Below are positions 34,610-48,542 of a stretch of DNA of 64,000 nucleotides, piece after piece. Both the position numbers and the translations under genes were made by a program. Every line of letters begins with the position of its first letter. Positions within the stretch are counted from its first letter, which is position 1. The stretch lies in assembly GCA_965214705.1 (NCBI GenBank), contig CBDCCI010000002.1, positions 384,001 to 448,000 on the forward strand, in the 5' to 3' direction. The DNA is from Alphaproteobacteria bacterium (GTDB lineage: Bacteria; Pseudomonadota; Alphaproteobacteria; UBA828). Under the pieces are notes generated by a model, which was given only the letters and a program-made list of their open reading frames with translations, searched no databases and had not been told where the DNA came from.

Positions 34610-36111
34610 GAGCCACTTGCAAAATTCCGCATTTGAGCGGGATTTTGCCGCCGTGGCGGTCAGATTGTCCTGGAAATCGGGACCGCTCTCTGTTCCTGTC
34701 GGGTTTCGGACAACGTCGACGGAGAGGGCGGCCCCATGTCGCTGGGACAGACACTATCCGGATTCTGGCATCACATTCAAGCGGATCTTTTCCCGTGGCT
34801 TGAGGAGGAGCTCGGGCCGCTCGGCGAGAGGTACCGGCGCTTCGTCACCGTGCTTGAGCTTGCGCGGGTCGAGAGCTTCCTTCCCCATTTCCATGGCCTG
34901 CCCGGTCGGCCGGTCGAGGATCGGGCGGCCTTGGCCCGCGCCTTCATCGCCAAGGCGGTGTTCGACGTACCCACGACGCGCGCCCTGATCGAGCGCCTTG
35001 AGAACGACAAGACGCTACGCCGTCTCTGCGGCTGGACCTATGCCGCAGAGATCCCGAGCGAGGCGACGTTTTCGCGGGCGTTTGCGGAGTTCTCCGAGAG
35101 TGCGTTGCCCGCTCGCGTGCATGAGGCGCTGATCAAGCAGACCCTCGGAGACCATCTGGTCGGGCACGTCTCGCGCGACTCGACGGCGATCGAGGCGCGC
35201 GAGAAGCCTCAGCCCAAGCCCAAGGCGGAGAAGCCGAAGCGCAAGCGCGGCCGCCCGCGCAAGGGCGAGGAGCGGCCCAAGGAGGAGCGCCGCGTGAAAC
35301 GCCAGCTCACGATGAGCTTGCCCCAGATGCTCGACGACCTGCCGAAAGCCTGCGACGTCGGCACCAAGCGCAACGCCAGGGGCCATACCACATCGTGGAT
35401 CGGTTACAAGCTGCACATCGACGCCGCCGATGGCGGCATTCCGATCAGTTGCATCCTGACGTCCGCCTCGCTGCACGACAGCCAGGCCGCGATCCCGCTG
35501 GCGAGTATGACCGCCGACCGCGTCACCAATCTGTACGACCTCATGGACTCAGCCTATGACGCGCCCGAGATCGGCTGGCACAGCTACCTGCTGGGCCACG
35601 TCCCGATCATCGACGTCAACCCTCGCGACAAGGAGTACAAGGAGGAGCTGGCGCGCGAGGCCAGGGCGCAGAGAGGCGTCGGTCACCGCCACCCGGCGGA
35701 CGAGCGCTACAACGAGCGCTCGAACATCGAGCGCATCAACGGTGGGCTGAAGGACAACTGCGGGGGCCGCCATGTCCGCGTGCGCGGCCATGCCAAGGTT
35801 CATTGCCACCTGATGTTCGGCATCCTGGTGCTGACGGTCGACCAGCTGATGCGCCTCCTGGCCTGAGCGGCGCCTCCGTCGCTGTCACGCCGGCACGCCT
35901 CCCTCCGCGGAGGCGCAAAAAGCCATGTCCGCATCGCGACGGCGGGTCCAAAATGCGCCCGCATGGGCATCGGTTTGCGGCGAATCGGCGCCCCGGCGGC
36001 AGCCAGCGACGTCCGCTCGTCCCGAAGTTCATGTTACGTTCCGACCGTCAATGTCCTCACGCCGGGCTCTCGGGAAAAGCAGACCGCGCCTGGGAGTTTT
36101 GCAAGTGGCTC
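34610..36111 (+). mobile_element. IS1182/IS5-like element, diverged isoform of 18041-19561
   Basis: TIR GAGCCACTTGCAAAA; 4-bp TSD TTAC (34606-09, 36112-15). Confidence 0.88.
34736..35866 (+). CDS. DDE transposase
   Basis: Closely similar to 18305-19435. Confidence 0.88.
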   Translation: MSLGQTLSGFWHHIQADLFPWLEEELGPLGERYRRFVTVLELARVESFLPHFHGLPGRPVEDRAALARAFIAKAVFDVPTTRALIERLENDKTLRRLCGWTYAAEIPSEATFSRAFAEFSESALPARVHEALIKQTLGDHLVGHVSRDSTAIEAREKPQPKPKAEKPKRKRGRPRKGEERPKEERRVKRQLTMSLPQMLDDLPKACDVGTKRNARGHTTSWIGYKLHIDAADGGIPISCILTSASLHDSQAAIPLASMTADRVTNLYDLMDSAYDAPEIGWHSYLLGHVPIIDVNPRDKEYKEELAREARAQRGVGHRHPADERYNERSNIERINGGLKDNCGGRHVRVRGHAKVHCHLMFGILVLTVDQLMRLLA

Positions 36112-36466
36112 TTACATTAGCGAATATCTGGCGGGCGCACCGTGACGTAGGGTTGCAGTTTCCTCCTGTATTAGATCGATGCTACAGAGGTTTACGGCTG
36201 ACGTCAAGGGCGAATGGAGCGGGGCGGGAAGACACATTGGCTGATCGTATGTCTCTCGGGAGTTGCATTCGGGGAAGCCGGGATGTGGAATTTGCCGTAG
36301 AGCATTGCTATGGTGCCTTTGCCGGGAACGGATCATTCGGTCAGGACACACGAATGGTACATGTTCTCGTGCGCGAGGAATATCATAGGAGTTTCTTGAT
36401 CTATTCTACATTGATGCGTAGCTGCGTGTCCCGGTTGCAACAGGTCCATACAGACGGATGGCCACG

Positions 36467-36670
36467 ATGAGGGAGAATGCCGGCGGACGGCGCCAGCGCG
36501 CGGTCATGGCGACCGATGCGGAGTGGGAACGAATCGGCCGGGCGGCTGCGGCGAGCGGCATGGACCTGTCGCGCTTCGTGATCCATCGCGCGCTGGACCG
36601 GGACCCTCTGCCGCCGGAGGTCCTGCGCCGGGCGGTACGCGAGATGCTGGTGCTGTCCATGCTGGAGATC
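36467..36670 (+). pseudogene. Ribbon-helix-helix mobilisation accessory protein (MobC/TrwA-like) fragment
   Basis: VMATDAEWERIGRAAAASGMDLSRFVIHRAL. Confidence 0.55.
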
Positions 36671-37392
36671 CTCTCGAGGGCGACTCGGAGACCGGCGCTA
36701 CGGTGCCGTTCTCGCCAAACCTGAGTAGGAGACACGATATGCCCCCCAAGAACGAGACCGCGACGCCGGCCGAGGCGGAGGGGAGCGAAGAACAGGCGGC
36801 GGTGAAAATCGCAGCGCTCACCCGGCTGAAGTCGATCGGCGAGAACGAAGCGACGGTGCTCGTCCACGAAATCTTCTACCGCCGCTTCCGCAACCGCCGT
36901 GAGCTCGCGAGCTGGGTCGGCCTGACGCCGACCCCCTGGGCGAGCGGCGACACGCAGCGCGACCGGGGGATTGACCGCGACGGTCCGGCATGGATCCGGG
37001 CACAACTCATCCAAATGGCGTGGCGTTGGCTGCGCTATCAGCCCGAGAGCCCTCTCAGCGCGTGGTTCGAGGAGCGCACTGCGGGCTCTCGGGGACGGAT
37101 GCGCAAGGTGATGGTGGCGCTCGCCCGCAAGCTGCTGATCGCGCTCTGGCGGTTCGCCGAGACCGGTCTCGTCCCGACGGGCGCCAAGCTCGTCTGATCG
37201 CGAGACCGCGCTGATCCAGACTGGCCGGACGCGGCCAGCGCTGGGCCGGGTGGCGAGTGGCCGAGCCTCTCACGGGCTGAAACACGCCGAGCAGGAGATG
37301 GGCCCCGCCTCCGGAACGCTGCGCCCGCAGCAAGCGGGATCGAGGGATGGTTCCGGCGCACCGCCGTTGAAAGAGAAACCTCCCGGATAAGA
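36670..37392 (+). mobile_element. IS110-family remnant C: transposase C-terminus (stop 37197) plus partial 3' non-coding end
   Basis: FRNRRELASWVGLTPTPWASG, ALARKLLIALWR; 3' scaffold shared with 45790-45970. Confidence 0.8.
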
Positions 37393-38376
37393 GTTGGGTA
37401 CGGGTGCCGAGCGTGGAGGAGGAGGACCGCAAGCGGTTGCTCCGTGAGCGTCGGCGGCTGGTGAAGGAGCGGACGTCGCTGACGAACTCGATCAAGGGGC
37501 TACTCAAGCTGCAGGGGGTCTTCGACTTGGATCCTCGGGCCAAGGAGTTCGAGGAGAAGTTCGCGGACGCGGTGACCGCATACGGCTCACTGTTCCCGCC
37601 GCGGGCGCGTCAGGAGATTCTGCGGCTTGTGGAGCGGCTGTCGCTCGTGCAGCGGCAGATCACGGCAGTCGAGGCCGAGCGGGATGCGGTTGTCCGCCAG
37701 GGCGCCGCTATCCCGGCGCCGGTCGCGCCGCAGCGAAGCGAGGAGCGGGCGGCGGCCAGGATCGCGACGTTGGCCCAGCTGAAGGGGATCGGCGCGAACG
37801 ACGCGATGCTGCTTGAGCACGAGATCTTCTACCGCGACTTCGGAAACCGCCGTGAGCTTGCGAGCTGGGTCGGGTTGACGCCGACCCCATGGTCGAGCGG
37901 GGACATGCAACGCGACCAGGGGATCGACCGCGACGGTCCGGCCTGGATCCGTGCCCTCCTCGTCCAAATGGCGTGGCGCTGGTTGCGCCATCAACCCGAC
38001 AGCGCGCTTAGCAAGTGGTTCGATGAGCGCACCGCCTGTTGTTTCGCACGTTATTTGACGCCGAATCTCCCAGATTATTTGACGTGATCGCTGCCCTGAT
38101 TTCCCAGATTGCTCGGTCTTTTCCGGATCGAAGCGTAGGAGCTCATGGTCTCTGCGGGCGGTCCGGGGTCGCTGTCTGATTGAGGTTTGGACTGGTGCTT
38201 GAGGAGGGCTGACGAGGTGTCGCGCGGCCGTCCACACGACGAAGTGCTGCCATGGCCTGAAGCAAGCTTCCGGCCACGGACTGGCCGCTCACTTGACGTA
38301 GTATCCCGGTGGAGGCGCAGCGCCTTCCGGACCGTTGGGGAGGGGTGGTTCCCGACGGCGGTTCCGGCTCGAACCC

Positions 38377-39414
38377 CTAGGCGTTGGCGGAACCGGGCTC
38401 CGGGAACCGCGGGGCCTGCGGCCGACTGCTGCCGTTGGCGGCGGCGGCCGCCGCCCGCTTGTCCGCTGCGCCTGCGACGACGCTGTAGCCGCCCTCGGCG
38501 TTGCGCGCGACGCGACCCTCCTGGACGAGCTTTTGCAAGATTACGCCGACGGTCTTGTGCCGGGTCGCGGCGCGTTCCCGGATCTGGCGTTGCGAGAGCG
38601 GCGCCCCGGCGTCGGCGAGCGCCTTGAGAACGCGGCATTCGGGAGTTTCGGGCTGAGGCGGCCCGCCGGCCGGGGGCGGCTGGCGCAGCTGGAAGGAGGG
38701 CTCCTCTCCGTCTTCCTTGAGCTCGATCTCGATGTCGTCGAGACCGCGAGCGGCGCGATGCTCGACGGTCATGAGCGTCTGCCGGTCCCGGCGGCGCAGG
38801 TATAGATTCGAATCTCCCCAGGCGTGCAGCTCACTGCTGCCCCGCAGGGCCTGCCCCGGCCTCGTGGCCCCGCTCTTGCGGGCGTGATGGACGAGCAGCA
38901 CGGCGGTCTCGAAGCGGCGTTGCAGGTCGCGCAGGAAGCCGAGGATCGGGGCGACGTCTGCGACCGTGTTCTCGTCCACGCCGTGCAGGCGGACCAGGGG
39001 GTCGAGGACCACGAGGCGCGGTGCGATGCGCTCCACGGTCTGCTGCAGGCGGCGCCGGTCGTCGAGATGGTCGAGGCGCAGTGTGGGCACGTCGATAACG
39101 GCGATGTCGAGGGTCTCGAAGCGAGCGCCTGCGGCGCGGGCGATCCCCTGCAGGCGCTTGCGCACGAGGTGGCCGGCGTCTTCTGCGGCGAACATCAGGA
39201 CCGGACCGGGCCGGGCCGGGGCGAAGTGCCGCAGGCATGGAACGCCGGCGGCGACTGCGACCGCGAGGTCCAGCGCCAGGATGGACTTGCCGCACTTGGG
39301 CTCGCCGCCGACGATGCCGACGGCTTGCTCGCCCCACAGCGTGTCCACCAGCCATTGCTGCTCGCGCGGCCGCTCCTCCAGCTCGATCGGGGTGCGGGTC
39401 GGGAAGCCGGTCAT
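38377..39414 (-). CDS. RepA-like/AAA_25 ATPase-helicase with C-terminal HTH
   Basis: GGEPKCGKS, FAAED, VVLDPLVRLH, LVHHARK, LRGSSEL; PLSQRQIRE HTH. Confidence 0.8.
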   Translation of the reverse strand: MTGFPTRTPIELEERPREQQWLVDTLWGEQAVGIVGGEPKCGKSILALDLAVAVAAGVPCLRHFAPARPGPVLMFAAEDAGHLVRKRLQGIARAAGARFETLDIAVIDVPTLRLDHLDDRRRLQQTVERIAPRLVVLDPLVRLHGVDENTVADVAPILGFLRDLQRRFETAVLLVHHARKSGATRPGQALRGSSELHAWGDSNLYLRRRDRQTLMTVEHRAARGLDDIEIELKEDGEEPSFQLRQPPPAGGPPQPETPECRVLKALADAGAPLSQRQIRERAATRHKTVGVILQKLVQEGRVARNAEGGYSVVAGAADKRAAAAAANGSSRPQAPRFPEPGSANA

Positions 39415-40214
39415 GGCCGCAACTCCTCTAGCGCGTGCTGCAGGTGCTCGGCGCTGACGGTCCTCGCCTCGTCGAGGGCGGCGGCGGAGAGCGCGTAGTG
39501 GGCGATGCGGTTGATCTGGCGCGGCAGGCCGCGCGCGCTCTGGAACAGGGCCTCGACGGCGGGCTCCTCGAAGAGCGGCAGCTCGCATCCCGCGAGCCTG
39601 AGGCGGTGCTTGATGTAGGCGTCGACCTCATCTCGGTCGAGGCCGGTGAGATGATGGCGGACGACGAGGCGCTGGCTGAGGGATTCGTGCATCGCCATGG
39701 CGAGACGCCGCCTGAGCTCGGTCAGGCCGACGAGGACGAGGCACAGGCGCTGCTCCGAATCCATGGCGAAGTTGGTGAGCAGGCGCAGGTCCTCGAGCAC
39801 GTCGTTGCGCAGGTGATGGGCCTCGTCGATGACGAGGACCGGCAGCTGCTTGGCCTCGGTGACGAGGCGGGAGATCTCGTTGCGGATTGCCTGATGGGCC
39901 GAGGCGCGCGAGCGCTCGATGGGCAGGCCGAGCTCCCACGCGATCGATTTGTACATGTCGAGCACGTTGCCCGTGGTCAGCGAGACGTAGTGGACCCGGT
40001 AGAGGCCAGGGTGGAGCTGCGCCGTCAGGTGCCGGCAGGCGGTGGTCTTGCCGGAGCCCACCTCGCCGGTGAGCAGGCCGATACCGCGCAGCTCGATGAG
40101 GTGGCCGAGCCTGGCCTCGGCCTCGCGGCGCGCGTTGGACTCGAACAGCTCGTCGGTCTCTGTCGGGGTCTCGAAGGGCAGGCGGGTGAAAGCGAAGTGG
40201 CGCTGGTACATCAC
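39411..40214 (-). CDS. ExeA-family AAA ATPase (transposition helper)
   Basis: HFAFTRLPF, TGEVGSGKT, VIDEAH, LVLVG, GLPRQIN. Confidence 0.88.
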   Translation of the reverse strand: MMYQRHFAFTRLPFETPTETDELFESNARREAEARLGHLIELRGIGLLTGEVGSGKTTACRHLTAQLHPGLYRVHYVSLTTGNVLDMYKSIAWELGLPIERSRASAHQAIRNEISRLVTEAKQLPVLVIDEAHHLRNDVLEDLRLLTNFAMDSEQRLCLVLVGLTELRRRLAMAMHESLSQRLVVRHHLTGLDRDEVDAYIKHRLRLAGCELPLFEEPAVEALFQSARGLPRQINRIAHYALSAAALDEARTVSAEHLQHALEELRP

Positions 40215-41539
40215 TCGTCCTCCTTCTTGTCCTTGAGCTTGTGCATGGCCAGCGGCGAGGGCGGGGGCTCGGGCGCCGGGTCCTCGGCCTCGATCTCCCT
40301 GGCCGGATAGGTGCGCCTGACGGCGGTGTTGGCGTAGGCGTCGAGAGGGGTAGCCTTGCCGGCCGGCTTGCCGTCATGGACCACGTCGAGAGGGCGCGAG
40401 GGCGGCGCGGCCGGGTCGTAGCGCAGGGTGATCTTCTCGCCGACCAGCACGGTATCGACCTCGTAGACGCAGCCGTCGAGACTGACGGTGCGATCCTTGT
40501 AGACACGGCGCTTGGCCTCGAAGAGGAACAGATCGTCGAGGTCCATGGTGGCGTCGGGATAGCGCACGCCGGCCGAGGCCAGCGCCCACTGCTCGAGCGG
40601 GGTGCGCCCCTCGTCGAGGCCACGATGCGGGCTGTTGTGATACTCCCCCTCGATCCAGGCCCAGAGGCTGCGGTTGAGCGCCTCCAGGCTGTCGACGTCA
40701 TCGCCGAGGTGGCGAAGCCAGCCGGCCCGAAGGGTGCGGAAGAAGCGCTCGATCTTACCCTTTCCCGCTGGCTGGAACGCTCTTGCGTGAATCAACGCAA
40801 CGCCGAGCCTGGCGCAGACCAGGGAGAGATGACGGGAGCGGTAGGCGCTTCCGTTGTCGACGTACAAGCGGGCCGGGAGGCCGCGCCGGATCAGCGCGTC
40901 CTTGAACACCGGCAGGAACGCCGCAGTGTTCTCCGCCATGGCGAAGGCGGCGAACGGGATGACGCGGGTGGCGTCGTCGATGAAGGCGATCAGGTAGGTC
41001 TTGCGCCGGCTGCGGCCGTGCCGGACCTTGGGTCCGTGCATGACGTCGCTCATCCACATCTCGCCGGCATGCCGGAAGGCGAAGCGGCGGCGATCCGCCC
41101 CGTCGGGCGGCTTCTTGTCGAACAGGCCCTCGCGGCTGAAGAGGCGGTGCACGGTGGACGAGGCGAGCGGGTGGTCGATACCCTCCTCGTGAGCCTTCTG
41201 GATGATGGCGCGGACCGACAATGCGTCGTTCTCGGTCTTCAGCGCGATGAGGCGCTCGGCGACCTCGGGCGGCAGCCGCCGGGGCTTCCCCCGGTCGGTA
41301 CGGGGCTTGGGGTAGAGCGCGTCGAAGCCGCCGTAGCGGTAGTCCTTGATCCAGCGCCGCATGGTCTCGGCGGCGACCCGGGTCCTGGTGGTTCCGGGGA
41401 TTGTGTAGGTCTTCTCGGCTTTGGCGCGCATCATCGCGCCGGCACCCGGTGCACCCACGGGCAGATGTACCAGATCGGCGATGACGTCGTATCGGAAGAG
41501 CGCGATCTGTTGGCGAAGGTCGTCGTCTGAGCTGTTCAT
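40211..41539 (-). CDS. Mu/IS481-like DDE transposase
   Basis: WMSDVMHG, FIDDATR, YVDNGSAY, GKIERFF, Mu-type C-terminus. Confidence 0.9.
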   Translation of the reverse strand: MNSSDDDLRQQIALFRYDVIADLVHLPVGAPGAGAMMRAKAEKTYTIPGTTRTRVAAETMRRWIKDYRYGGFDALYPKPRTDRGKPRRLPPEVAERLIALKTENDALSVRAIIQKAHEEGIDHPLASSTVHRLFSREGLFDKKPPDGADRRRFAFRHAGEMWMSDVMHGPKVRHGRSRRKTYLIAFIDDATRVIPFAAFAMAENTAAFLPVFKDALIRRGLPARLYVDNGSAYRSRHLSLVCARLGVALIHARAFQPAGKGKIERFFRTLRAGWLRHLGDDVDSLEALNRSLWAWIEGEYHNSPHRGLDEGRTPLEQWALASAGVRYPDATMDLDDLFLFEAKRRVYKDRTVSLDGCVYEVDTVLVGEKITLRYDPAAPPSRPLDVVHDGKPAGKATPLDAYANTAVRRTYPAREIEAEDPAPEPPPSPLAMHKLKDKKEDE

Positions 41540-41584
41540 GGTGCGATCCTCGTTCAGGGACTCCCTGGCCCCGGGATCGTCACG

Positions 41585-42220
41585 CTACGAACTCTCCGGC
41601 GGCGGGTCCGGCCCCGCCCGTTGTTGGAACTGCGGTTTGCGATTCCCCACGTCGATGCCGTGGGGTTGGAAGCCCAAAGGCGCGGGCAGCGTCTGGAGCT
41701 GCCCGGCGACCAGGCCGCGCAGTTCCATCAACGCGCTGTCGCTCTTCAGACGCTCGCGCACCGCGCTCATGGTGGGCGCGCAGCCCGCGAGCAGGTCGGG
41801 GATCAGGCCGATGACGCGCACAAGCGCGTTGTGCACGAGCTTCAGCCTGCGGCGGATCCAACGCACGGCGCCGGGAAGCTCGATGGCGTCCTCGTCCTCG
41901 GGGCAGCGCACCTCGTCCGCTGCCTCCTCCAGGCTGCCGGCCTCCTCCGCCACGACAACAACCGCTTCCAGCGCATCGAGCGTGCCCGGCAGCCGCGCCG
42001 CCAGACAGTCGGCCAGCAGGCCGATGGTCGTATGGCTCTCACGGCAATACCAGCGAGGAACCCTTGCGCCGGGCGGGGTCTTCCGCTCGTAGGTGCCGTG
42101 GCTTGCCACAGAACATCCGCCGTGCGGGTGATTCGGGCAGCGCTCAAGCCTTGCGTCGCGCCACGCCTCGGTCTTAACGTATTCCTCGCTGGTGAGCCCC
42201 GTTTCGTAGCGAAGCTGCAC
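41585..42220 (-). CDS. Cys/His (DUF6431-like) accessory protein
   Basis: CPNH..GC...HGTYER...RWYC...HTT; first gene of the transposon operon. Confidence 0.6.
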   Translation of the reverse strand: MQLRYETGLTSEEYVKTEAWRDARLERCPNHPHGGCSVASHGTYERKTPPGARVPRWYCRESHTTIGLLADCLAARLPGTLDALEAVVVVAEEAGSLEEAADEVRCPEDEDAIELPGAVRWIRRRLKLVHNALVRVIGLIPDLLAGCAPTMSAVRERLKSDSALMELRGLVAGQLQTLPAPLGFQPHGIDVGNRKPQFQQRAGPDPPPESS

Positions 42221-42309
42221 CGGCCCTGGCCCGGCGGGAGTTGAGTCCCCCGGGCCTCTCTTTGCGGTTCAGTGAGAGGCCGAGATTACGGACGCTCCCC
42301 GGCGCCGCC

Positions 42310-42443
42310 AAGCTGTGGAGCCGTGGACGCGTCCTGCGGACCGATCGGCGTCCTGCGGACCGTGTGGACAGCCCTTGGACAAGCTGGCGCTTGCCCACCG
42401 CCTGACCACACTCGCCGATCTCGCGCCCACCGCTCCACAGCTT
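42310..42443. other. Nested multi-stem palindrome in the transposon leader (candidate ncRNA or cis element)
   Basis: Outer stem AAGCTGTGGAGC/GCTCCACAGCTT (20/22 extended); inner GATCGGCG/CGCCGATC and GGACAAGC/GCTTGCCC. Confidence 0.6.
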
Positions 42444-44494
42444 CAACAGCAATGAGGATTCTGCTGACGATCAAAAAAATGCCGCAGGCAGCGTCCTTCC
42501 CGCACTCGGCCACCATCCCGGGAAATCCACCAACCAATCAAAGTGAGAAAAAAACCCGTGCTTCTATCCGGCTAGACCGGAAAACAACACCGCCGGAGCC
42601 CGGGGACGCATTCGTCGAGTGATGATCGTGGCAGTCGCCCGCAAGCTGCTCATCGCGCTGTGGCGGTTCTCCGAGACCGGTCTCGTGCCGACGGGCGCTA
42701 GGCTCGCCTGACGCCGGGACCGCAACTCTCTAGCCCGGCCGGACGCGGCCGACGCTGGGCCGGGTGGCGAGTGGCCGAACTTCACCAGGGCTGAAATACG
42801 CCGAGTCGTAGATGGGCCCCGCCTCCGGAACGCTGCAGCCCGCAGCAAACGGGATTGAGGGACGGGTCCGGTGCATCGCCACCGGTCACCGCCCGGATAA
42901 AAGGTGGGTGTGCGCTCAAGCGCGACCGATAGCGAGCGTTCCGACCTGGCAACGCGCTGATCCGGTCAACCACGAGGGAGGAATGGCATGCAGTGAAGCT
43001 CCGCTTCCATCCCCATCTGCACGTGGTCGTCCCCAACGCGGGCTTCGACGTCGCGAACGGCGAGTGGAAGACCGGGAGCGGCACCTTCCTTGCCCCCGTC
43101 AAGGTCCTCGCCAGCCTGTTCCGCCGCCGCTTCCTCGAAGACCTCGCCCGCGCCCATGGGCGGGGGGAGCTGGAGTTCCACGGCACCGTCGCCCATCTCG
43201 CCAACCCCGGCGAGTTCCACGCCGCCCTCGCCGCCGCCCGCGGCAGGGACTGGGTAGTCTACGCCAAGCGGCCCTTCCGCGGGCCGGCCCAGGTGTTCCG
43301 ATACCTCGCCCGCTACACCCACCGGATCGCCATCGGTGACAGCCGCATCACAGGCTTCGATGGCGAGACCGTCTCCTTCCGGCACCGGAAGCCGAAGCAG
43401 GCGGGGCAGAAGAAGCCGCGCTACGGCACCATGACTGTCAGCGCCGACGAGTTCATCCGCCGCTTCCTGCTCCATGTCCTTCCCGACGGGATGCACCGCA
43501 TCCGTCACTTCGGCATCCTCTCCAACGGATGCCGGACCACGACGTTGGCCAGCGCGCGCGAGGCTTTCGGCTCTATCGGCTGCCCCGACGATGAGTGTGT
43601 GGACGACGATGCGCCCGAAGGCCAACGTGAGCGTGACGAAGCAGCGGAGCCCGCGGCCGCTCCCGTCGCCTGTCCCGATTGCGGAGCGCCGCTGCGCCTC
43701 GCCCAGTCTCACCAATGTAGCCGGTGAATCTCACCCGAAGTAGCCGGCGAATCTCATCCAAAGTAGCCACCCGATCTCAGCAAAGTAGCCACCCCGGAGC
43801 GAAGCGACGCGGTTACGTTTTTGTGGGCGGTTCTCCCTCCGCGATTTCTCCGTGATCGGTACCACCGCCGAAGGCCCGGTGGCAAGGCGGTGGAGCATGG
43901 TGCGCGCGCGGCGCGTGAGACCCCTCACGCGTCTGGCGGCGCGCGCGCGCCATGCCTGGCACCATCCGTCCCGCCCCTCCGACGCCCCGGAGCGGAGCGA
44001 CGATCACGCCGCGCGCAGCGCGGCGCTCTGTAGTCGCGTTCATGCCTTTTTCCCTGCGGCAGCGTCGTCGATACGCATGGACGTGCCGTGCAGCTCGATG
44101 CGGATGGCACCATGGACGAGGCGGTCGAGGATGGCGTCGGCGACCGTGGGATCGTTGAGCTGGCGGTGCCAATCGGCCACCGGCAACTGGCTGGTGACGA
44201 TCACCGAGCGCCGGCCGAAGCGGTCGTCGAGGATTTCGAGGAGATCGCGCGCGCGAGCCGCATCGATGGGCGCGATGCCCCAGTCGTCGAGGATCAGCAC
44301 CTCGATGCGGGCGAGGTCGCGGTAGAGCTTCGGGATCGTGCCCTCGCCATGGGCGATGCGCAGCTCGGTGAGCAGCCTGGGCACGCGGTGGTACTGGGCG
44401 ATGTGGCCCTCGAGGCACGCCTTGTGGCCAAGGGCACAGGAGATCCAGATACCATGAGCACGGTGGCATCGAATCGCGTCTGGCAGTTAGAGAA

Positions 44495-44528
44495 GCTCGG
44501 AGAGAAGGCCAGCACCTTCTCTCCGAGC
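44495..44528 (+). promoter_or_regulatory. Perfect 14-bp hairpin upstream of the IS110 transposase
   Basis: GCTCGGAGAGAAGG-ccagca-CCTTCTCTCCGAGC. Confidence 0.55.
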
Positions 44529-44554
44529 GGAATCGTCAACAACGGAGTGGACGG

Positions 44555-45751
44555 ATGTCGGATGGTCCAGACACGACCGCGCTGACAGGCGCAAGTAGTA
44601 GCACGATTTATGTCGCGGTGGAGATCAGCCTCAAATCGTGGATTGTGGGCGTGCATTGCCCGGATGCCTCGGGTGGCAGCATCAGCATCCACACACTGGC
44701 TGCTGCCGACACGGCGGGACTGTTGGATCTCGTCGGGTCGGTGCGGGAACGGGTGGCGAGGGAGCTCGGCGCCCGTCCTCGGGTGATGCTGACCTACGAG
44801 GCGGGCTACGAGGGGTTCTGGCTGGCCCGCGATATCGAGCGCCGTGACGCGGAGATCGATATCTTCATGAACGATCCGGCGAGCCTGCGGGTGAACCGGC
44901 GCGCCAAGAAGAAAAAGACCGACCGCATCGACGCGAGGAGAATGGTTCGGGCTCTGAAGGCATGGGACCAAGGCGATTCGGAGGCCATGTCCTGGGTGCG
45001 CGTGCCCGACGTGGACCGGGAGGACGCCAAGCGCCTGCTGCGCGAGAGGGACACGCTGATCAGCGAGCGTACCCGCGTCAACAACCGGATCAAAGGGCTC
45101 TTGCAGTTGCACGGCATCTTCGATCTGGCGCCGCGCAAGCCGGACTTCCTCGAACGCCTCGCGGCCGCGCGGACGGGCTATGGGGCGCCGTTGCCGCCGC
45201 GGGCGCGTGCGGAGATCGAGAGGGCGGTGCGGATGCTTCGCCTGGTTGAGGACCATATCGAGATGATCGAGGCCGAGAAGAAGGCCCTGCTGAAGGCTGG
45301 CCGGAAAACCCAGGACGCGACCGACGGTGACGGGACGGCGATGATCGCGGCGCTTACGCGCATCCACGGCATCGGCCTCAATGACGCCACACTGCTGGCT
45401 GGCGAGGTGTTCTATCGGGACTTCCGCAATCGCCGGGAGTTGGGCAGCTGGGCCGGGTTGACGTCGGTGCCGTGGGCGAGCGGAGATGTCGACCACGATC
45501 TTGGCATCAGCAAGGCCGGCCCCTCGCATGTCAGGAAGCACATGATCCAGATGGCCTGGCGCTGGTTGAAACTGCAACCGGAAAGCGCGATCACGAAGTG
45601 GTTCCATGCCTACGTCGCCAGGGATGCCGGTGGCGGGAGGGACCGGCGAGCGAGGAAGCGGGCGATCGTGGGGGTCGCGCGCAAGCTGCTGATCGCGCTG
45701 TGGCGCTATGCCACCCAGGGACTGGTGCCCGAGGGCGCCATCGTCTCCTGA
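44555..45751 (+). CDS. IS110-family recombinase/transposase
   Basis: VAVEIS, YEAG, KTDRIDA, WASG...GISKAG, VARKLLIALWR. Confidence 0.93.
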   Translation: MSDGPDTTALTGASSSTIYVAVEISLKSWIVGVHCPDASGGSISIHTLAAADTAGLLDLVGSVRERVARELGARPRVMLTYEAGYEGFWLARDIERRDAEIDIFMNDPASLRVNRRAKKKKTDRIDARRMVRALKAWDQGDSEAMSWVRVPDVDREDAKRLLRERDTLISERTRVNNRIKGLLQLHGIFDLAPRKPDFLERLAAARTGYGAPLPPRARAEIERAVRMLRLVEDHIEMIEAEKKALLKAGRKTQDATDGDGTAMIAALTRIHGIGLNDATLLAGEVFYRDFRNRRELGSWAGLTSVPWASGDVDHDLGISKAGPSHVRKHMIQMAWRWLKLQPESAITKWFHAYVARDAGGGRDRRARKRAIVGVARKLLIALWRYATQGLVPEGAIVS

Positions 45752-45789
45752 GGACAGCAGCCGAACGAACAGGAGAATACAGGAGGTTC

Positions 45790-46020
45790 CGACGTGGTCG
45801 GACGCGGCCGCGGAGGATGCCGGGCAAGGCGTGTGACCGGGCAAGAGTTGGGTCGCCGCTTGGCACCGTTCTACAGATGGGTCCCGCCTCCCGGAACGTC
45901 GTTACCGCTTGGATGCGGTATTGGGGTCACGGAGCCGGCAAGCGCCGGAGTTCCGAACCGGATAAGAGCTGAGCAGCGTGACGAATCGCTGCGTGGGAAG
46001 GACGTTCTGCCTGGCCATCA
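45790..46020 (+). ncRNA. Candidate bridge/seek RNA of IS110 element A (ends approximate)
   Basis: Target match at 45838-51; donor matches at 45917-22 and 45962-68; scaffold shared with two sibling ends. Confidence 0.75.
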
Positions 46021-46446
46021 ACCGCGGACTCGAAGGGGAGAACAGGAATGCCATTGACGTAGATGAAGCCGGGCCTTGCGGAGAGAGCTCATAAGAACTC
46101 TTGCCCGTGCCGCACGGTCCGGTGATCAGGATGTTGGCGCCGTTGCGGACCCAGGCGCAGTCTGCGAGGCCGAGCACGAGACTGCGGTCGAGGCCGCGCG
46201 GACGGCTCAGGTTGATATCCTCGAAGCAGGCGTCCTGATGGCGCAGCTGCGCCCTCTTGAGGCGCCGCTGCAGGGCCCTGGAGCGGCGCTCGGCGATCTC
46301 GCGATCGATCAGCAGCGCGAGCCGATCCTCGAAGGGCATGTCGTCGAGGTCGTTGCGCGCCACCTGCTCGAGGAAGGCGGCGTGCATGCCTGGCAGGCGC
46401 AGCGAGGCGATGCGCTCGGCCAGCGGGTGGGAGACGGGGTTTTCGG

Positions 46447-47979
46447 TCATCGGTAGGCCTCCGGTCCTCTGATGTTGGAATGATCGATGGGCATGGTCTC
46501 GGGTTCCTGCTCGGCGGCGGCGCGGTCGGCGCCGGTGCGCAGGATGTTCTCGAGCCCGCGGTAGCTCCGCGTGCCGAGCTCGAGCGCGTAGCGGCAGGCG
46601 CCGTCGAAGCGGTCCTGCTCGTAGCTCTTGGCCAGCCGGAGGACGCCGTAGCAGGCACGGAAGCCGAACTCCGGATTGTTCTGCCGCTTCATGAGCGCGA
46701 CGATGTAGGCGTGGACATGGGGCCCGATATCGCGCGCGTTCTTCTCCAGCTGGGCGCGGGTGGCCTCGACGCCGGCGCGTTGGTGCGCCTTCGGTTTGTG
46801 CTCTTCGACGGTGGTGGCGCGGCCCCTGGCTGAGCTGCGGATATGGCTGGCGACGTGCCGGCCCCGGAGGAAGACGTCGATCAGGTTGTCGCGCAGGCGG
46901 ACGTCGACCTCCTTGCCGATGAGCTCGTGGGGCACCGAGTAGAAGTGGTAATCGATGGCGATGTGATAATCGCGGTGGACCGTGTTCTTGCGCCACACGG
47001 TGTGCTGCCAGCGCCGTTCCGGCAGCGGCTTCATGTGGGGGCGGTCGACGCTCTCGAAGCGGCCGTAGCGGTTCTCGCCGGTGCCGTCGGCATAGGGCCG
47101 GCTGTTGATCTTCCTGACCTGGGCGGCGATCGCGCGGTTGGCCGATGGCAGATCATGGAAGACGCGCTTGCGCAGGGGCGCGAGAATCCAGCGCTCGCCC
47201 TGGAGCACGCCGTTCTCGACCAGGGCTTTGTCGCGCGGCTTCTTCACGCGCGCCGGGAAGCCCTGAACGTCATAGTGTTCGAGCAGATCGGCGTAGGTCT
47301 CGTTGAGGACCGGCTCGTAGCGCGAGGGCTTGATCACCGCCGGCTTGATGTTGTCGGGCACCACGACCTGCGGCACGCAGCCCATATCCTTGAAGCAGCG
47401 CACGTGCGAGGCGCACCAGTCCTCGATCTTCTGGCTGAGCGTCGCCTCGGCGTAGAGCCGCCCCGAGACGCCCATCGAGGCTACGAACACCTGCGCCTCG
47501 TGCTCGGCCCCGTCGATCATGATCGGGATCGTCATGCCGGCGTAATCGACGAACAGCCTCTCGCCGGGACGGCGGTTCTGGCGCATCGTCGCGTCCCGGC
47601 GCGGCCGCCACTCCCGGAAGCGGCGGCACCAGGTCGGATAGCTCATGCCGCCGGGATGGGTCTCGCGCCATTCCTCCCACAGCAGTTTCAGGGTCACGCC
47701 CTGCTCGGACAGGTCCGTCTCGACCTTCGCCCAGTCCACCTCCTGCTGCGGCGCGGCTTGCGTGGGCGCCGGAAACAGCGCCGCCTCCAGCGCCTCCTCG
47801 GCCATGTCGCCGGCTTCCGGCCAACTCAACCCGGACGCCGCGAACCGCTCCAGGACCGACGCCACCGAGCGTCGCGCCATACCGCAGTGGGTTGCGATCA
47901 CGCGGGCGCTGCGTCCCTCCTCGAAATGGAAACCAAGAACCTTCTTCACCTTTCTCATCGGCAACCTTCCCCGTGCCAT
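46447..47979 (-). CDS. istA: IS21 transposase IstA
   Basis: PGERLFVDYAG, VVPDN, PRDKALVENGV, HFYSVPH. Confidence 0.93.
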   Translation of the reverse strand: MARGRLPMRKVKKVLGFHFEEGRSARVIATHCGMARRSVASVLERFAASGLSWPEAGDMAEEALEAALFPAPTQAAPQQEVDWAKVETDLSEQGVTLKLLWEEWRETHPGGMSYPTWCRRFREWRPRRDATMRQNRRPGERLFVDYAGMTIPIMIDGAEHEAQVFVASMGVSGRLYAEATLSQKIEDWCASHVRCFKDMGCVPQVVVPDNIKPAVIKPSRYEPVLNETYADLLEHYDVQGFPARVKKPRDKALVENGVLQGERWILAPLRKRVFHDLPSANRAIAAQVRKINSRPYADGTGENRYGRFESVDRPHMKPLPERRWQHTVWRKNTVHRDYHIAIDYHFYSVPHELIGKEVDVRLRDNLIDVFLRGRHVASHIRSSARGRATTVEEHKPKAHQRAGVEATRAQLEKNARDIGPHVHAYIVALMKRQNNPEFGFRACYGVLRLAKSYEQDRFDGACRYALELGTRSYRGLENILRTGADRAAAEQEPETMPIDHSNIRGPEAYR

Positions 47980-48542
47980 CCCAGCCCCCCTCGGATGAGT
48001 CGCGAAATCCGACGGGTAGGACGGCGCTCTGAGTCGCACCAAAAGCCGCCGCCCCGAGGGGGTGGCTACTTTCGGTGAGACCGGGTGGCTACTTTCGGTG
48101 AGATTCGGCGGCTACTTTGCCTGAGATTGGGTGGCTACTTTCGTGAAATTCGGCACGTCCGCCAGATCCCTCGCCAGCGTCCCGCCCACGCGAGCCGGGC
48201 GCCACCCGACGGGTGCCCGAACACGGGTCGCAGCCGTGGGTAATCCCTTCGCTTCAGCTTCGTGCGTCCGCGCCGTCCCGATGGCGAGCCAGATGACCCG
48301 TGCGCAATCTCACTCGCGGCCGAAGCCGTCCCGCCGGCTCAGGGCGATCTCCCCAATTCCTGTGACCATGGGCGTCGCGACGCTGGCGGAAACAGCAGCG
48401 TCGACCATAGGCATCCCGCCAATCGTCCCTTCGTAAGCGCGCCACCAGTGCACTTTCCACATACCGGCCACCCGAGCTCGGGGGCCCGCGGCTTCGTTCA
48501 ACCAGGTTGAGCAGGCTCTGGCGAACCTGCTCAACCCTAAAG

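Follow-up and report, generated by a model that had tools for sequence, protein, structure and literature searches.

Three sibling scaffolds and the insertion site of element C

The window, a 64,000-nucleotide stretch of an alphaproteobacterial genome (7.9 Mb, 67% G+C, three contigs; G000:C3:384001-448000), contains three homologous 3' non-coding regions, termed A, B and C, in which a common scaffold lies downstream of the stop codons of IS110-family transposase genes. A first-pass annotation of this sequence had proposed that the three copies share one scaffold and differ most in a single 11-nt slot, and alignment bore this out with exact coordinates: the slot reads AGCCTCTCACG at 37264-37274 in A, AACTTCACCAG at 42778-42788 in B and GGCAAGAGTTG at 45840-45850 in C, and in each case is flanked by ...GTGRCCG and GG(C/T)... 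of the scaffold. The A and B regions are 86% identical over 152 nt and the C region is more divergent, with a mean column identity of 64% across the three. Between A and B, substitutions occupied 8 of 17 slot positions (the 11-nt slot plus a second, 6-nt slot) compared to 19 of 158 scaffold positions (Fisher P = 0.001), and between A and C they occupied 13 of 17 compared to 39 of 149. Slots were substitution hot spots in 7/8 pairs whose slots were correctly read; the slot of one relative (L031) was mis-read by the search pattern, and its two rows are unreliable. From the anatomy of the elements, the covariation of the helices, the correspondence of slots to flanks and of guides to element ends, and an empty target site, we assign a probability of about 90% to the reading that the repeated scaffold is the bridge RNA (seekRNA) gene of IS110-family elements with an IS1111 layout. 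The features of element C, all on the plus strand, are as follows.

44448..46096, plus strand: element C, a complete IS110-family insertion sequence (IS) of IS1111-type layout, 1649 bp
44555..45751, plus strand: transposase of C, 398 aa, with DEDD_Tnp_IS110 and Transposase_20 (Pfam)
45793..46010, plus strand: putative bridge/seekRNA gene of C, with a 5' hairpin (45793-45812), a target-binding internal loop and a donor-binding multiloop
45840..45850, plus strand: slot 1 of C, predicted right-target guide GGCAAGAGTTG, reverse complement of the right flank
45869..45878, plus strand: slot 2 of C, predicted left-target guide, TTCTAC (45869-45874) followed by AGAT, which equals the core AG plus the first two element bases
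45917..45922, plus strand: candidate right-donor guide of C, GGTATT, complementary to the left end GATACC (44448-44453)
45960..45968, plus strand: predicted left-donor guide of C, GGATAAGAG, identical to the right end CATAAGA plus the G of the left end (circle junction)
46097..46106, plus strand: right target half-site of C (ACTCTTGCCC) in istB, from the empty-site comparison

Element C interrupts the istB gene of an IS21 element in its Walker A codons, between S and W of GTGKS|W (the uninterrupted IstB paralog scores 219.8 bits to IstB_IS21). An empty copy of the target at G000:C1:621479, lying in a 98% identical IS21 copy, reads GGAGATCCA|ACTCTTGCC, which places element C at 44448-46096 (1649 bp) and shows that it was inserted without target duplication; the istB target can be written as GGAGATCC-AA-CTCTTGCC. 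The same terminal bases delimit about 20 further C-type copies in the host genome (21 left and 23 right ends), and the left end of 107 nt (44448-44554) and right end of 345 nt (45752-46096) give C the short-left/long-right layout of IS1111. The slot portion 45840-45849, GGCAAGAGTT, is a perfect 10/10 reverse complement of 46096-46105 (AACTCTTGCC), which upholds the earlier claim that the slot of C matches its own target and agrees with the empty site: the right flank CTCTTGCC is covered by slot bases 1-8 and the core AA by bases 9-10 (TT). In a separate C-type copy, at G000:C1:1874703-1874867, roughly the last 165 nt of the right end are tandemly repeated.

The majority of the C-type copies, 18 in number, occupy a single position in IS91-family elements, CGCTCTTC|AACTCCTGCC, where the target can be written as CGCTCTTC-AA-CTCCTGCC and the slot matches at 9/10 bases. 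Among 93 IS91-family copies with a left flank aligned to this site, 18 were occupied, their zinc-finger codons being disrupted by the insertion, and 73 were empty (69 of one form plus two variants of 2 each). Insertion at a specific sequence without target-site duplication is seen twice, in the empty and occupied istB and in the 73 empty and 18 occupied IS91 sites. The remaining IS91-family copies carry, in one case, an additional AG and, in the other, lack AAC at the site, and may be excision footprints. IS91-family copies that reach the site occur genome-wide, for example at C1:3005632 and C2:15360.

To extend the slot-flank comparison to the family, relatives were collected from 61 genomes (13 with a match) and 80 public contigs, giving 80 distinct RNA/junction rows. 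For the right flank, 69 (RNA, junction) pairs gave a test set of 41 distinct RNAs, each represented once; five relatives for which automatic choice gave no credible right end (L022, L024, L025, L006 and L018) were dropped, and the right ends of L039 and of a 92% C copy were corrected by eye. Each flank, taken as the 12 nt after the core, was scored by its longest exact match to a 68-nt region of the RNA. Cognate flanks scored a mean of 6.41 compared to 4.52 for non-cognate flanks, and none of 10,000 permutations reached the observed mean. The typical rule is that 8 nt of slot 1 pair with the right flank and 2 nt (CU/UU) face the core (AG/AA), followed by the G of the scaffold. The host genome also holds 8 further full or partial A/B-type copies and, counting A, B and C types, 9 slot-1 variants. 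Copies of similar scaffold in the host genome that differ in slot also differ in flank. Individual slot and flank pairs include those of the 86% identical C sister at C3:483683 (slot AATAGGCGTTG, flank CGCCTATCGC), three host copies with slot GAGAACTGGCG and flank GCCAGTTC(TC), the copy at C1:4107821 (slot AGCGAAGGCCG, flank GGGCCTGCGC; 8/9 with a shift), L002, which is 91% identical to A (slot ACACCCGTGCG, flank GCACGGGTGG), and L098, whose slot matches its right flank at 11/11 bases. In a Paracoccaceae metagenome-assembled genome (MAG), one RNA is found at 14 distinct right junctions, mostly (N)CCCCTGC or a close variant. In this MAG (L060-L087, contig OZ241882.1), one family member with a single RNA is present at 28 loci or more, a natural off-target series.

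These comparisons support the view that, in a bridge/seekRNA of IS1111-type elements, the slot would act as the guide to the right half of the target. The first-pass annotation had inferred a programmable target guide, and the guide role stands up, as the slot varies more than any other part of a conserved, structured RNA, matches the right flank of C at 10/10 bases and is associated with flanks family-wide; it would serve only the right half of the target, the left half falling to the second, 6-nt slot. The direction of cause is not readable from sequence alone, and scaffolds with 91% identity elsewhere differ in their slots as whole blocks, both of which would be compatible with flank DNA having been copied into the element by imprecise excision or gene conversion, the match then being a record of past sites and not their cause. 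We consider such copying very unlikely, since a simple read-through copy would not give a reverse complement of the right flank placed about 250 nt within the element in a conserved fold; moreover, the matching bases recur at most of the 14 different junctions where one RNA occurs, the 73 empty IS91 sites already hold the matching sequence, and in IS1111/IS110 relatives the reprogramming experiments described in the available text of PMC11187229 show that the RNA determines the target.

Proposed second target guide, donor guides and RNA fold

A second variable stretch, of 6 nt and not described in the first-pass annotation, lies directly 5' of AGAT(G/A)GG and reads as the left flank. Across 35 RNAs, slot 2 matched the last six left-flank nucleotides at a mean of 4.26/6 for cognate compared to 1.67 for non-cognate flanks, a difference reached in 0/10,000 permutations. 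The left match is looser than the right one, and in the Paracoccaceae MAG the last left-flank base alone is invariant (13/13 junctions). In the C sister copies that sit in IS91 sites, slot 2 matches the left flank at 4/6. The scaffold thus contains, as expected of a bridge RNA, two segments that match opposite strands of the target halves and meet at the insertion point.

Two further segments correspond to the ends of the element itself, a property likewise expected of a bridge RNA and absent from the first-pass annotation. In the predicted left-donor guide, the pentamer that follows GGAT is the same as the one that follows the right-end CAT in 40/48 elements, an agreement that spans five right-end types (AAGAG, AAAAG, ACAAG, AGGAG and ATAAG). 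In the predicted right-donor guide, whose positions were taken from alignment columns, GGNAT is complementary to the left end ATNCC with a mean of 4.12/5 in 25 sequences, and its middle base covaries with the end (ATCC/GGAT, ATACC/GGTAT, ATGCC/GGCAT).

The consensus structure derived from 34 family sequences comprises 54 pairs that were 85.9% paired, compared to 79.5% in shuffles and 32-49% when the structure was slid, and 27 of its pairs were changed on both sides, a number as high being found in 0/500 shuffles; RNAalifold independently recovered the main helices. Helices 1-4 were 94-99% paired with compensatory changes, and their G-U pairs fit the plus strand only. The outer stem of the target loop (98.4% paired, 4 pairs with changes on both sides) closes an internal loop whose 5' strand carries slot 1 and whose 3' strand carries slot 2 plus AGAU, with a small inner hairpin between them. 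A long-range helix, GGAACGYN/NRCGUUCC, 98.9% paired with 4 double-changed pairs, encloses a multiloop with both donor guides; in C it is formed by GGAACGTC (45893-45900) and GACGTTCT (46001-46008), which covary. The folded RNA consequently extends about 45 nt beyond CCGGATAA, and that of C spans about 45793-46010: the slot coordinates given in the first-pass annotation are right, and its span is too short, as the scaffold does not stop at CCGGATAA (45970), the RNA closing at ~46010 and element C ending at 46096. A conserved structure that presents the guides in loops is again what a bridge RNA would have.

The fold also bears on two other explanations. The scaffold lies within the right end, where the transposases of many IS families bind, and a promoter scan (below) found none, as might be expected if it were a DNA-level feature, either right-end transposase-binding sites or a 3' untranslated region/attenuator, with the slots as unconstrained spacers; the compensatory changes and G-U pairs favour a plus-strand RNA fold, and unconstrained spacers would not track the flanks or the element's own ends, which makes this account highly improbable. 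A regulatory RNA, for instance one exerting antisense-type control of the interrupted host gene or the transposase and not guiding recombination, could in principle act on the mRNAs of flanking genes through its complementarity to them. We regard it as extremely improbable, because two guides face opposite strands of both flanks and meet at the crossover point, two more segments match the element's own ends, and such an arrangement of four guides, which is the one found in bridge RNAs, would serve no purpose in mRNA control.

Under the bridge RNA reading, the RNA would have the same sense as the transposase gene and fold into two domains. Domain 1 would be an internal loop closed by the covarying stem, with slot 1 as the right-target guide on its 5' strand; slot bases 1-8 would pair with the top strand of the 8 nt to the right of the insertion point, and bases 9-10 would face the 2-nt core. 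The 6-nt slot 2 plus AGAT would form the left-target guide, which reads like the top strand of left flank and core and would pair with the bottom strand. Domain 2, the multiloop within the helix GGAACGYN/NRCGUUCC, would offer GGNAT as the guide for the left end and GGATAARAG as the guide for the right end or circle junction. Once made, the RNA would bind the transposase and direct the reaction: the RNA-loaded DEDD transposase would bring the excised circle and a slot-matching target together, and recombination would occur at the core without target duplication.

Several observations weigh against this interpretation. In the right-flank test, 12 of the 41 cognate flanks were at background level (longest match 4-5), examples being three copies with slot GGTTGCTCGCG (C3:1762505, 526147 and 533181), L042, L049 and L053, and the register of slot 1 on the flank shifts by -1 to +2 nt from one natural insertion to another, even where the RNA is the same. 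Slot 2 of element C matches its own left flank at only 2/6 positions, and the single-sequence minimum-energy fold partly disagrees with the covariation structure (z = -2.3). The transposases are 398 aa (C) and 395 aa (A/B-type siblings) long, compared to the 330-350 aa that the available text of PMC11187229 gives for IS1111 transposases. With respect to expression, no sigma-70-like promoter or intrinsic terminator was found in 45500-46200, and an Rfam scan of 35000-48000 at E<=1 returned no relevant family and one chance snoRNA-like match. Seven RNA runs contained 7-14% of the sampled words; the RNA-library contigs are Logan contigs from relatives (4 examined) and cannot show transcription. 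One of them, a 707-nt contig (X4), spans 45600-46014 at about 93% identity and ends at 46014, and overlapping contigs begin at 45987; since it comes from one study and ends at a repeat boundary, nothing is concluded from it on transcription or RNA ends.

A TTGAC motif is present 15-40 nt inside the right end of most family members (for example in the window at 46050-46060, and in L027-L099). It could be the -35 box of a promoter that the left end completes in the excised circle, and a figure legend for ISEc11 in PMC11187229, as far as its available text goes, describes a promoter of such kind formed across the circle junction.

Truncated siblings A and B

Elements A and B are incomplete, and their features, with those of a transposon inserted in B, are as follows.

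36676..37402, plus strand: element A, left end AG ATCCTC... kept, RNA gene cut at ~37402, before the closing helix
37264..37274, plus strand: slot 1 of A (AGCCTCTCACG), complementary to GAGAGGC at bases 2-8
37290..37295, plus strand: slot 2 of A (AGCAGG), matching its own left flank TGCTGG (36670-36675) at 4/6
37403..38036, plus strand: element B part 1, transposase residues about 143-362 (tblastn with the 395-aa sibling)
42595..42990 (end approximate), plus strand: element B part 2, transposase residues to 395, stop at 42710
42778..42788, plus strand: slot 1 of B (AACTTCACCAG), with no flank remaining
42804..42809, plus strand: slot 2 of B (AGTCGT)
38377-39588, minus strand: AAA_25 + MarR protein of the 4553-bp transposon
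39411-40214, minus strand: AAA_22 ATPase of the 4553-bp transposon
40211-41539, minus strand: rve-type transposase of the 4553-bp transposon

The transposase gene of A is internally deleted, with residues 252-394 remaining (36766-37191), and its left junction is preserved as ...CCATGCTGG|AG ATCC... at 36675/36676, where slot 2 plus the following AGAT agrees at 8/10 positions (GC.GGAGAT 8/9). The gene that A interrupts is a weakly recognized NikA-like mobilisation gene (23.1 bits against a cutoff of 27), and its uninterrupted paralogs in the same genome read TCCA(T/G)GCTGG-AG-GAGAGGCGGCTG. In these empty paralogous sites, CTGG-AG-GAGAGGCG, the stretch GAGAGGC is complementary to slot bases 2-8, so that 7/8 positions expected to pair do so in the right half-site. 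Of the target that the first-pass annotation predicted for A, these 7 contiguous bases are found out of 11 (7/11) and the full 11-mer is not; since only the first 8 slot bases as a rule pair with the flank, the literal 11-mers CGTGAGAGGCT and CTGGTGAAGTT over-specify the targets. As the host genome has 183 sites within three mismatches of A's full 16-mer, the result for A draws its weight from the position beside its own junction and not from the match by itself. The target of L098, from an Elioraea MAG, reads ..CCCGAG-AG-TGAGAGGGCTGCGG and resembles the site inferred for A, ..GCTGG-AG-GAGAGGCGGCTGCG (window 36600-36680); one gene family may be the target of distantly related members.

Element B is one element split by the 4.5-kb transposon (37403-38036 plus 42595-about 42990). 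Its RNA gene is complete (about 42737-42942), and its right end lacks roughly the last 55 nt. The targets that the guide model would predict are AGCAGG-AG-GAGAGGCT for A and AGTCGT-AG-GTGAAGTT for B, and a scan of the host genome for both (three registers, <=3 mismatches) gave chance-level matches only, none of them convincing for B. The host genome, where no copy exceeds 86% identity, yielded no intact A or B with its slots, nor were these slots present in 60 relatives, the best match, L002, carrying other slots; L018 has a near-A slot (AGCCTCTGACG) and is cut off downstream. The A/B slot pattern had 0 matches in genome contigs and, in its strict form, 0 in metagenome contigs. Its gapped form gave 4 matches in metagenome contigs, all of which were unrelated coding sequence without the scaffold and were rejected.

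The cut end of A is fused to the 5' side of B at ~37403. At this joint (37395-37410), the cut RNA gene of A meets codon ~143 of the transposase gene of B, and a few bases are common to both; two neighbouring sibling elements would seem to have recombined or to have lost the DNA between them by deletion. The transposon within the transposase gene of B (4553 bp, 38037-42589) has ends TGTTGTTT... and is flanked by a 5-bp duplication, CCGCC (38032-36 and 42590-94). On the other side, at 42985-43727, the truncated right end of B abuts a 5'-truncated IS91-family transposase gene (Y2_Tnp; NF033538, 186 bits) that starts near its HxH motif.

A broader proposal, which we hold only tentatively and think unlikely, is that the right-target guide alone (8-10 nt) largely decides where an element lands, that guides have been diversified within the genome, that the family would thus be an RNA-guided hyperparasite of transposons, and that orphan RNAs may act in trans. 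Element C, with 10/10 matches on the right compared to 2/6 on the left, and the Paracoccaceae MAG, where the sole invariant left-flank base is the last one, are the observations that bear on right-guide dominance, and the guides in the host genome are aimed at genes of other mobile elements, namely IS91 zinc-finger codons, the Walker A region of IS21 istB and the NikA-like mobilisation gene. If the proposal were true, complete orphan RNA genes such as that of B could retarget intact sibling transposases in trans.

Relation to known systems and significance

The transposase of C scored 31.1 bits to PF01548 (cutoff 29) and 45.8 bits to PF02371, the domains of the IS110 family, and the NCBIfam model NF033542, "IS110 family RNA-guided transposase", gave 174.5 bits for C and 194.1 bits for an A-type sibling (cutoff 140). 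The motif GL-P----S(t)G, located in the C-terminal domain of IS1111 transposases according to the available text of PMC11187229, is present in A as GLTPTPWASG (translation of 36766-37191) and in C as GLTSVPWASG, with P replaced by S. The subterminal inverted repeats of C, ATGAGC (44454-59) with GCTCAT (46087-92), are 6 bp long, at the lower edge of the 7-17 bp range for IS1111 in the available part of PMC11208160, and those of the A/B-type siblings, TATGAGGC with GCCTCATA, are 8 bp long. The comparisons made here support the view that the elements fit the published IS1111 picture in every tested respect except the transposase length, with the repeats of C at the lower edge.

As described in the available text of Siddiquee et al. 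2024 (PMC11187229), the 3' non-coding region of IS1111 elements yields a seekRNA that co-purifies with the transposase, is required for transposition and can be reprogrammed, and its top-strand match lies 5' of its bottom-strand match, the two overlapping in the target. Like the seekRNAs of ISEc11, ISPa11 and ISKpn4 in that source, the RNA proposed here lies in a long non-coding region downstream of the transposase gene, and its segment complementary to the top strand stands 5' of the bottom-strand one, the two meeting at the insertion point. The subterminal position of the inverted repeats, the lack of target duplication and natural relatives with the same scaffold and other guides that go to other sites are shared with the IS1111 elements of PMC11187229, in its available text, whereas the transposase (395-398 aa here) is longer and the predicted folded RNA, about 215 nt including the donor multiloop, exceeds the seekRNA peak species of 82-96 nt. 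Durrant et al. 2024 (PMC11208160, available part) predicted that 93% of IS1111 elements have a bridge RNA in their right end and noted that donor-binding bases often lie in a multiloop, as the donor guides do here. With the IS621/IS110 bridge RNA of the same source, the present RNA shares one target domain and one donor domain, a DEDD recombinase and, per domain, a left-half guide in top-strand sense and a right-half guide that is the top-strand complement, with a 2-nt core; unlike that RNA, which is in the left end, it lies in the right end, and its target-loop guides are ordered right then left.

The targets also differ from those of ISEc11, ISPa11 and ISKpn4, being other IS transposase genes (IS91 zinc-finger codons, IS21 istB) and a NikA-like mobilisation gene. 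The core of IS621 is CT; here the donor core is AG and the target core AG, AA or AC. The bridge RNA of the IS621/IS110 group is reportedly also the subject of Hiraizumi et al. 2024. IS4321 and IS5075, IS1111-family elements that Partridge and Hall are said to have described in 2003, reportedly target the inverted repeats of Tn21-type transposons; like them, the present elements have a specific target inside another mobile element, and unlike them, with their terminal-repeat targets, they insert within coding sequences (IS91 transposase, IS21 IstB).

The mechanism is already published (Siddiquee 2024; Durrant 2024), so that these elements are a clear but ordinary example that raises no new question, and close relatives may already figure in the supplementary IS lists of PMC11208160 and PMC11187229. 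They do provide a natural series of reprogrammed guides, with 9 slot-1 variants in this genome and about 40 distinct RNAs with known junctions, which shows the free positions of an IS1111-type bridge RNA, the extent of register slip and the inequality of the two target guides, and they document a longer-transposase subgroup that has no Rfam model. For the annotation of this genome, they account for the fixed-position interruption of about a fifth of its IS91-family copies and of one IS21 copy.

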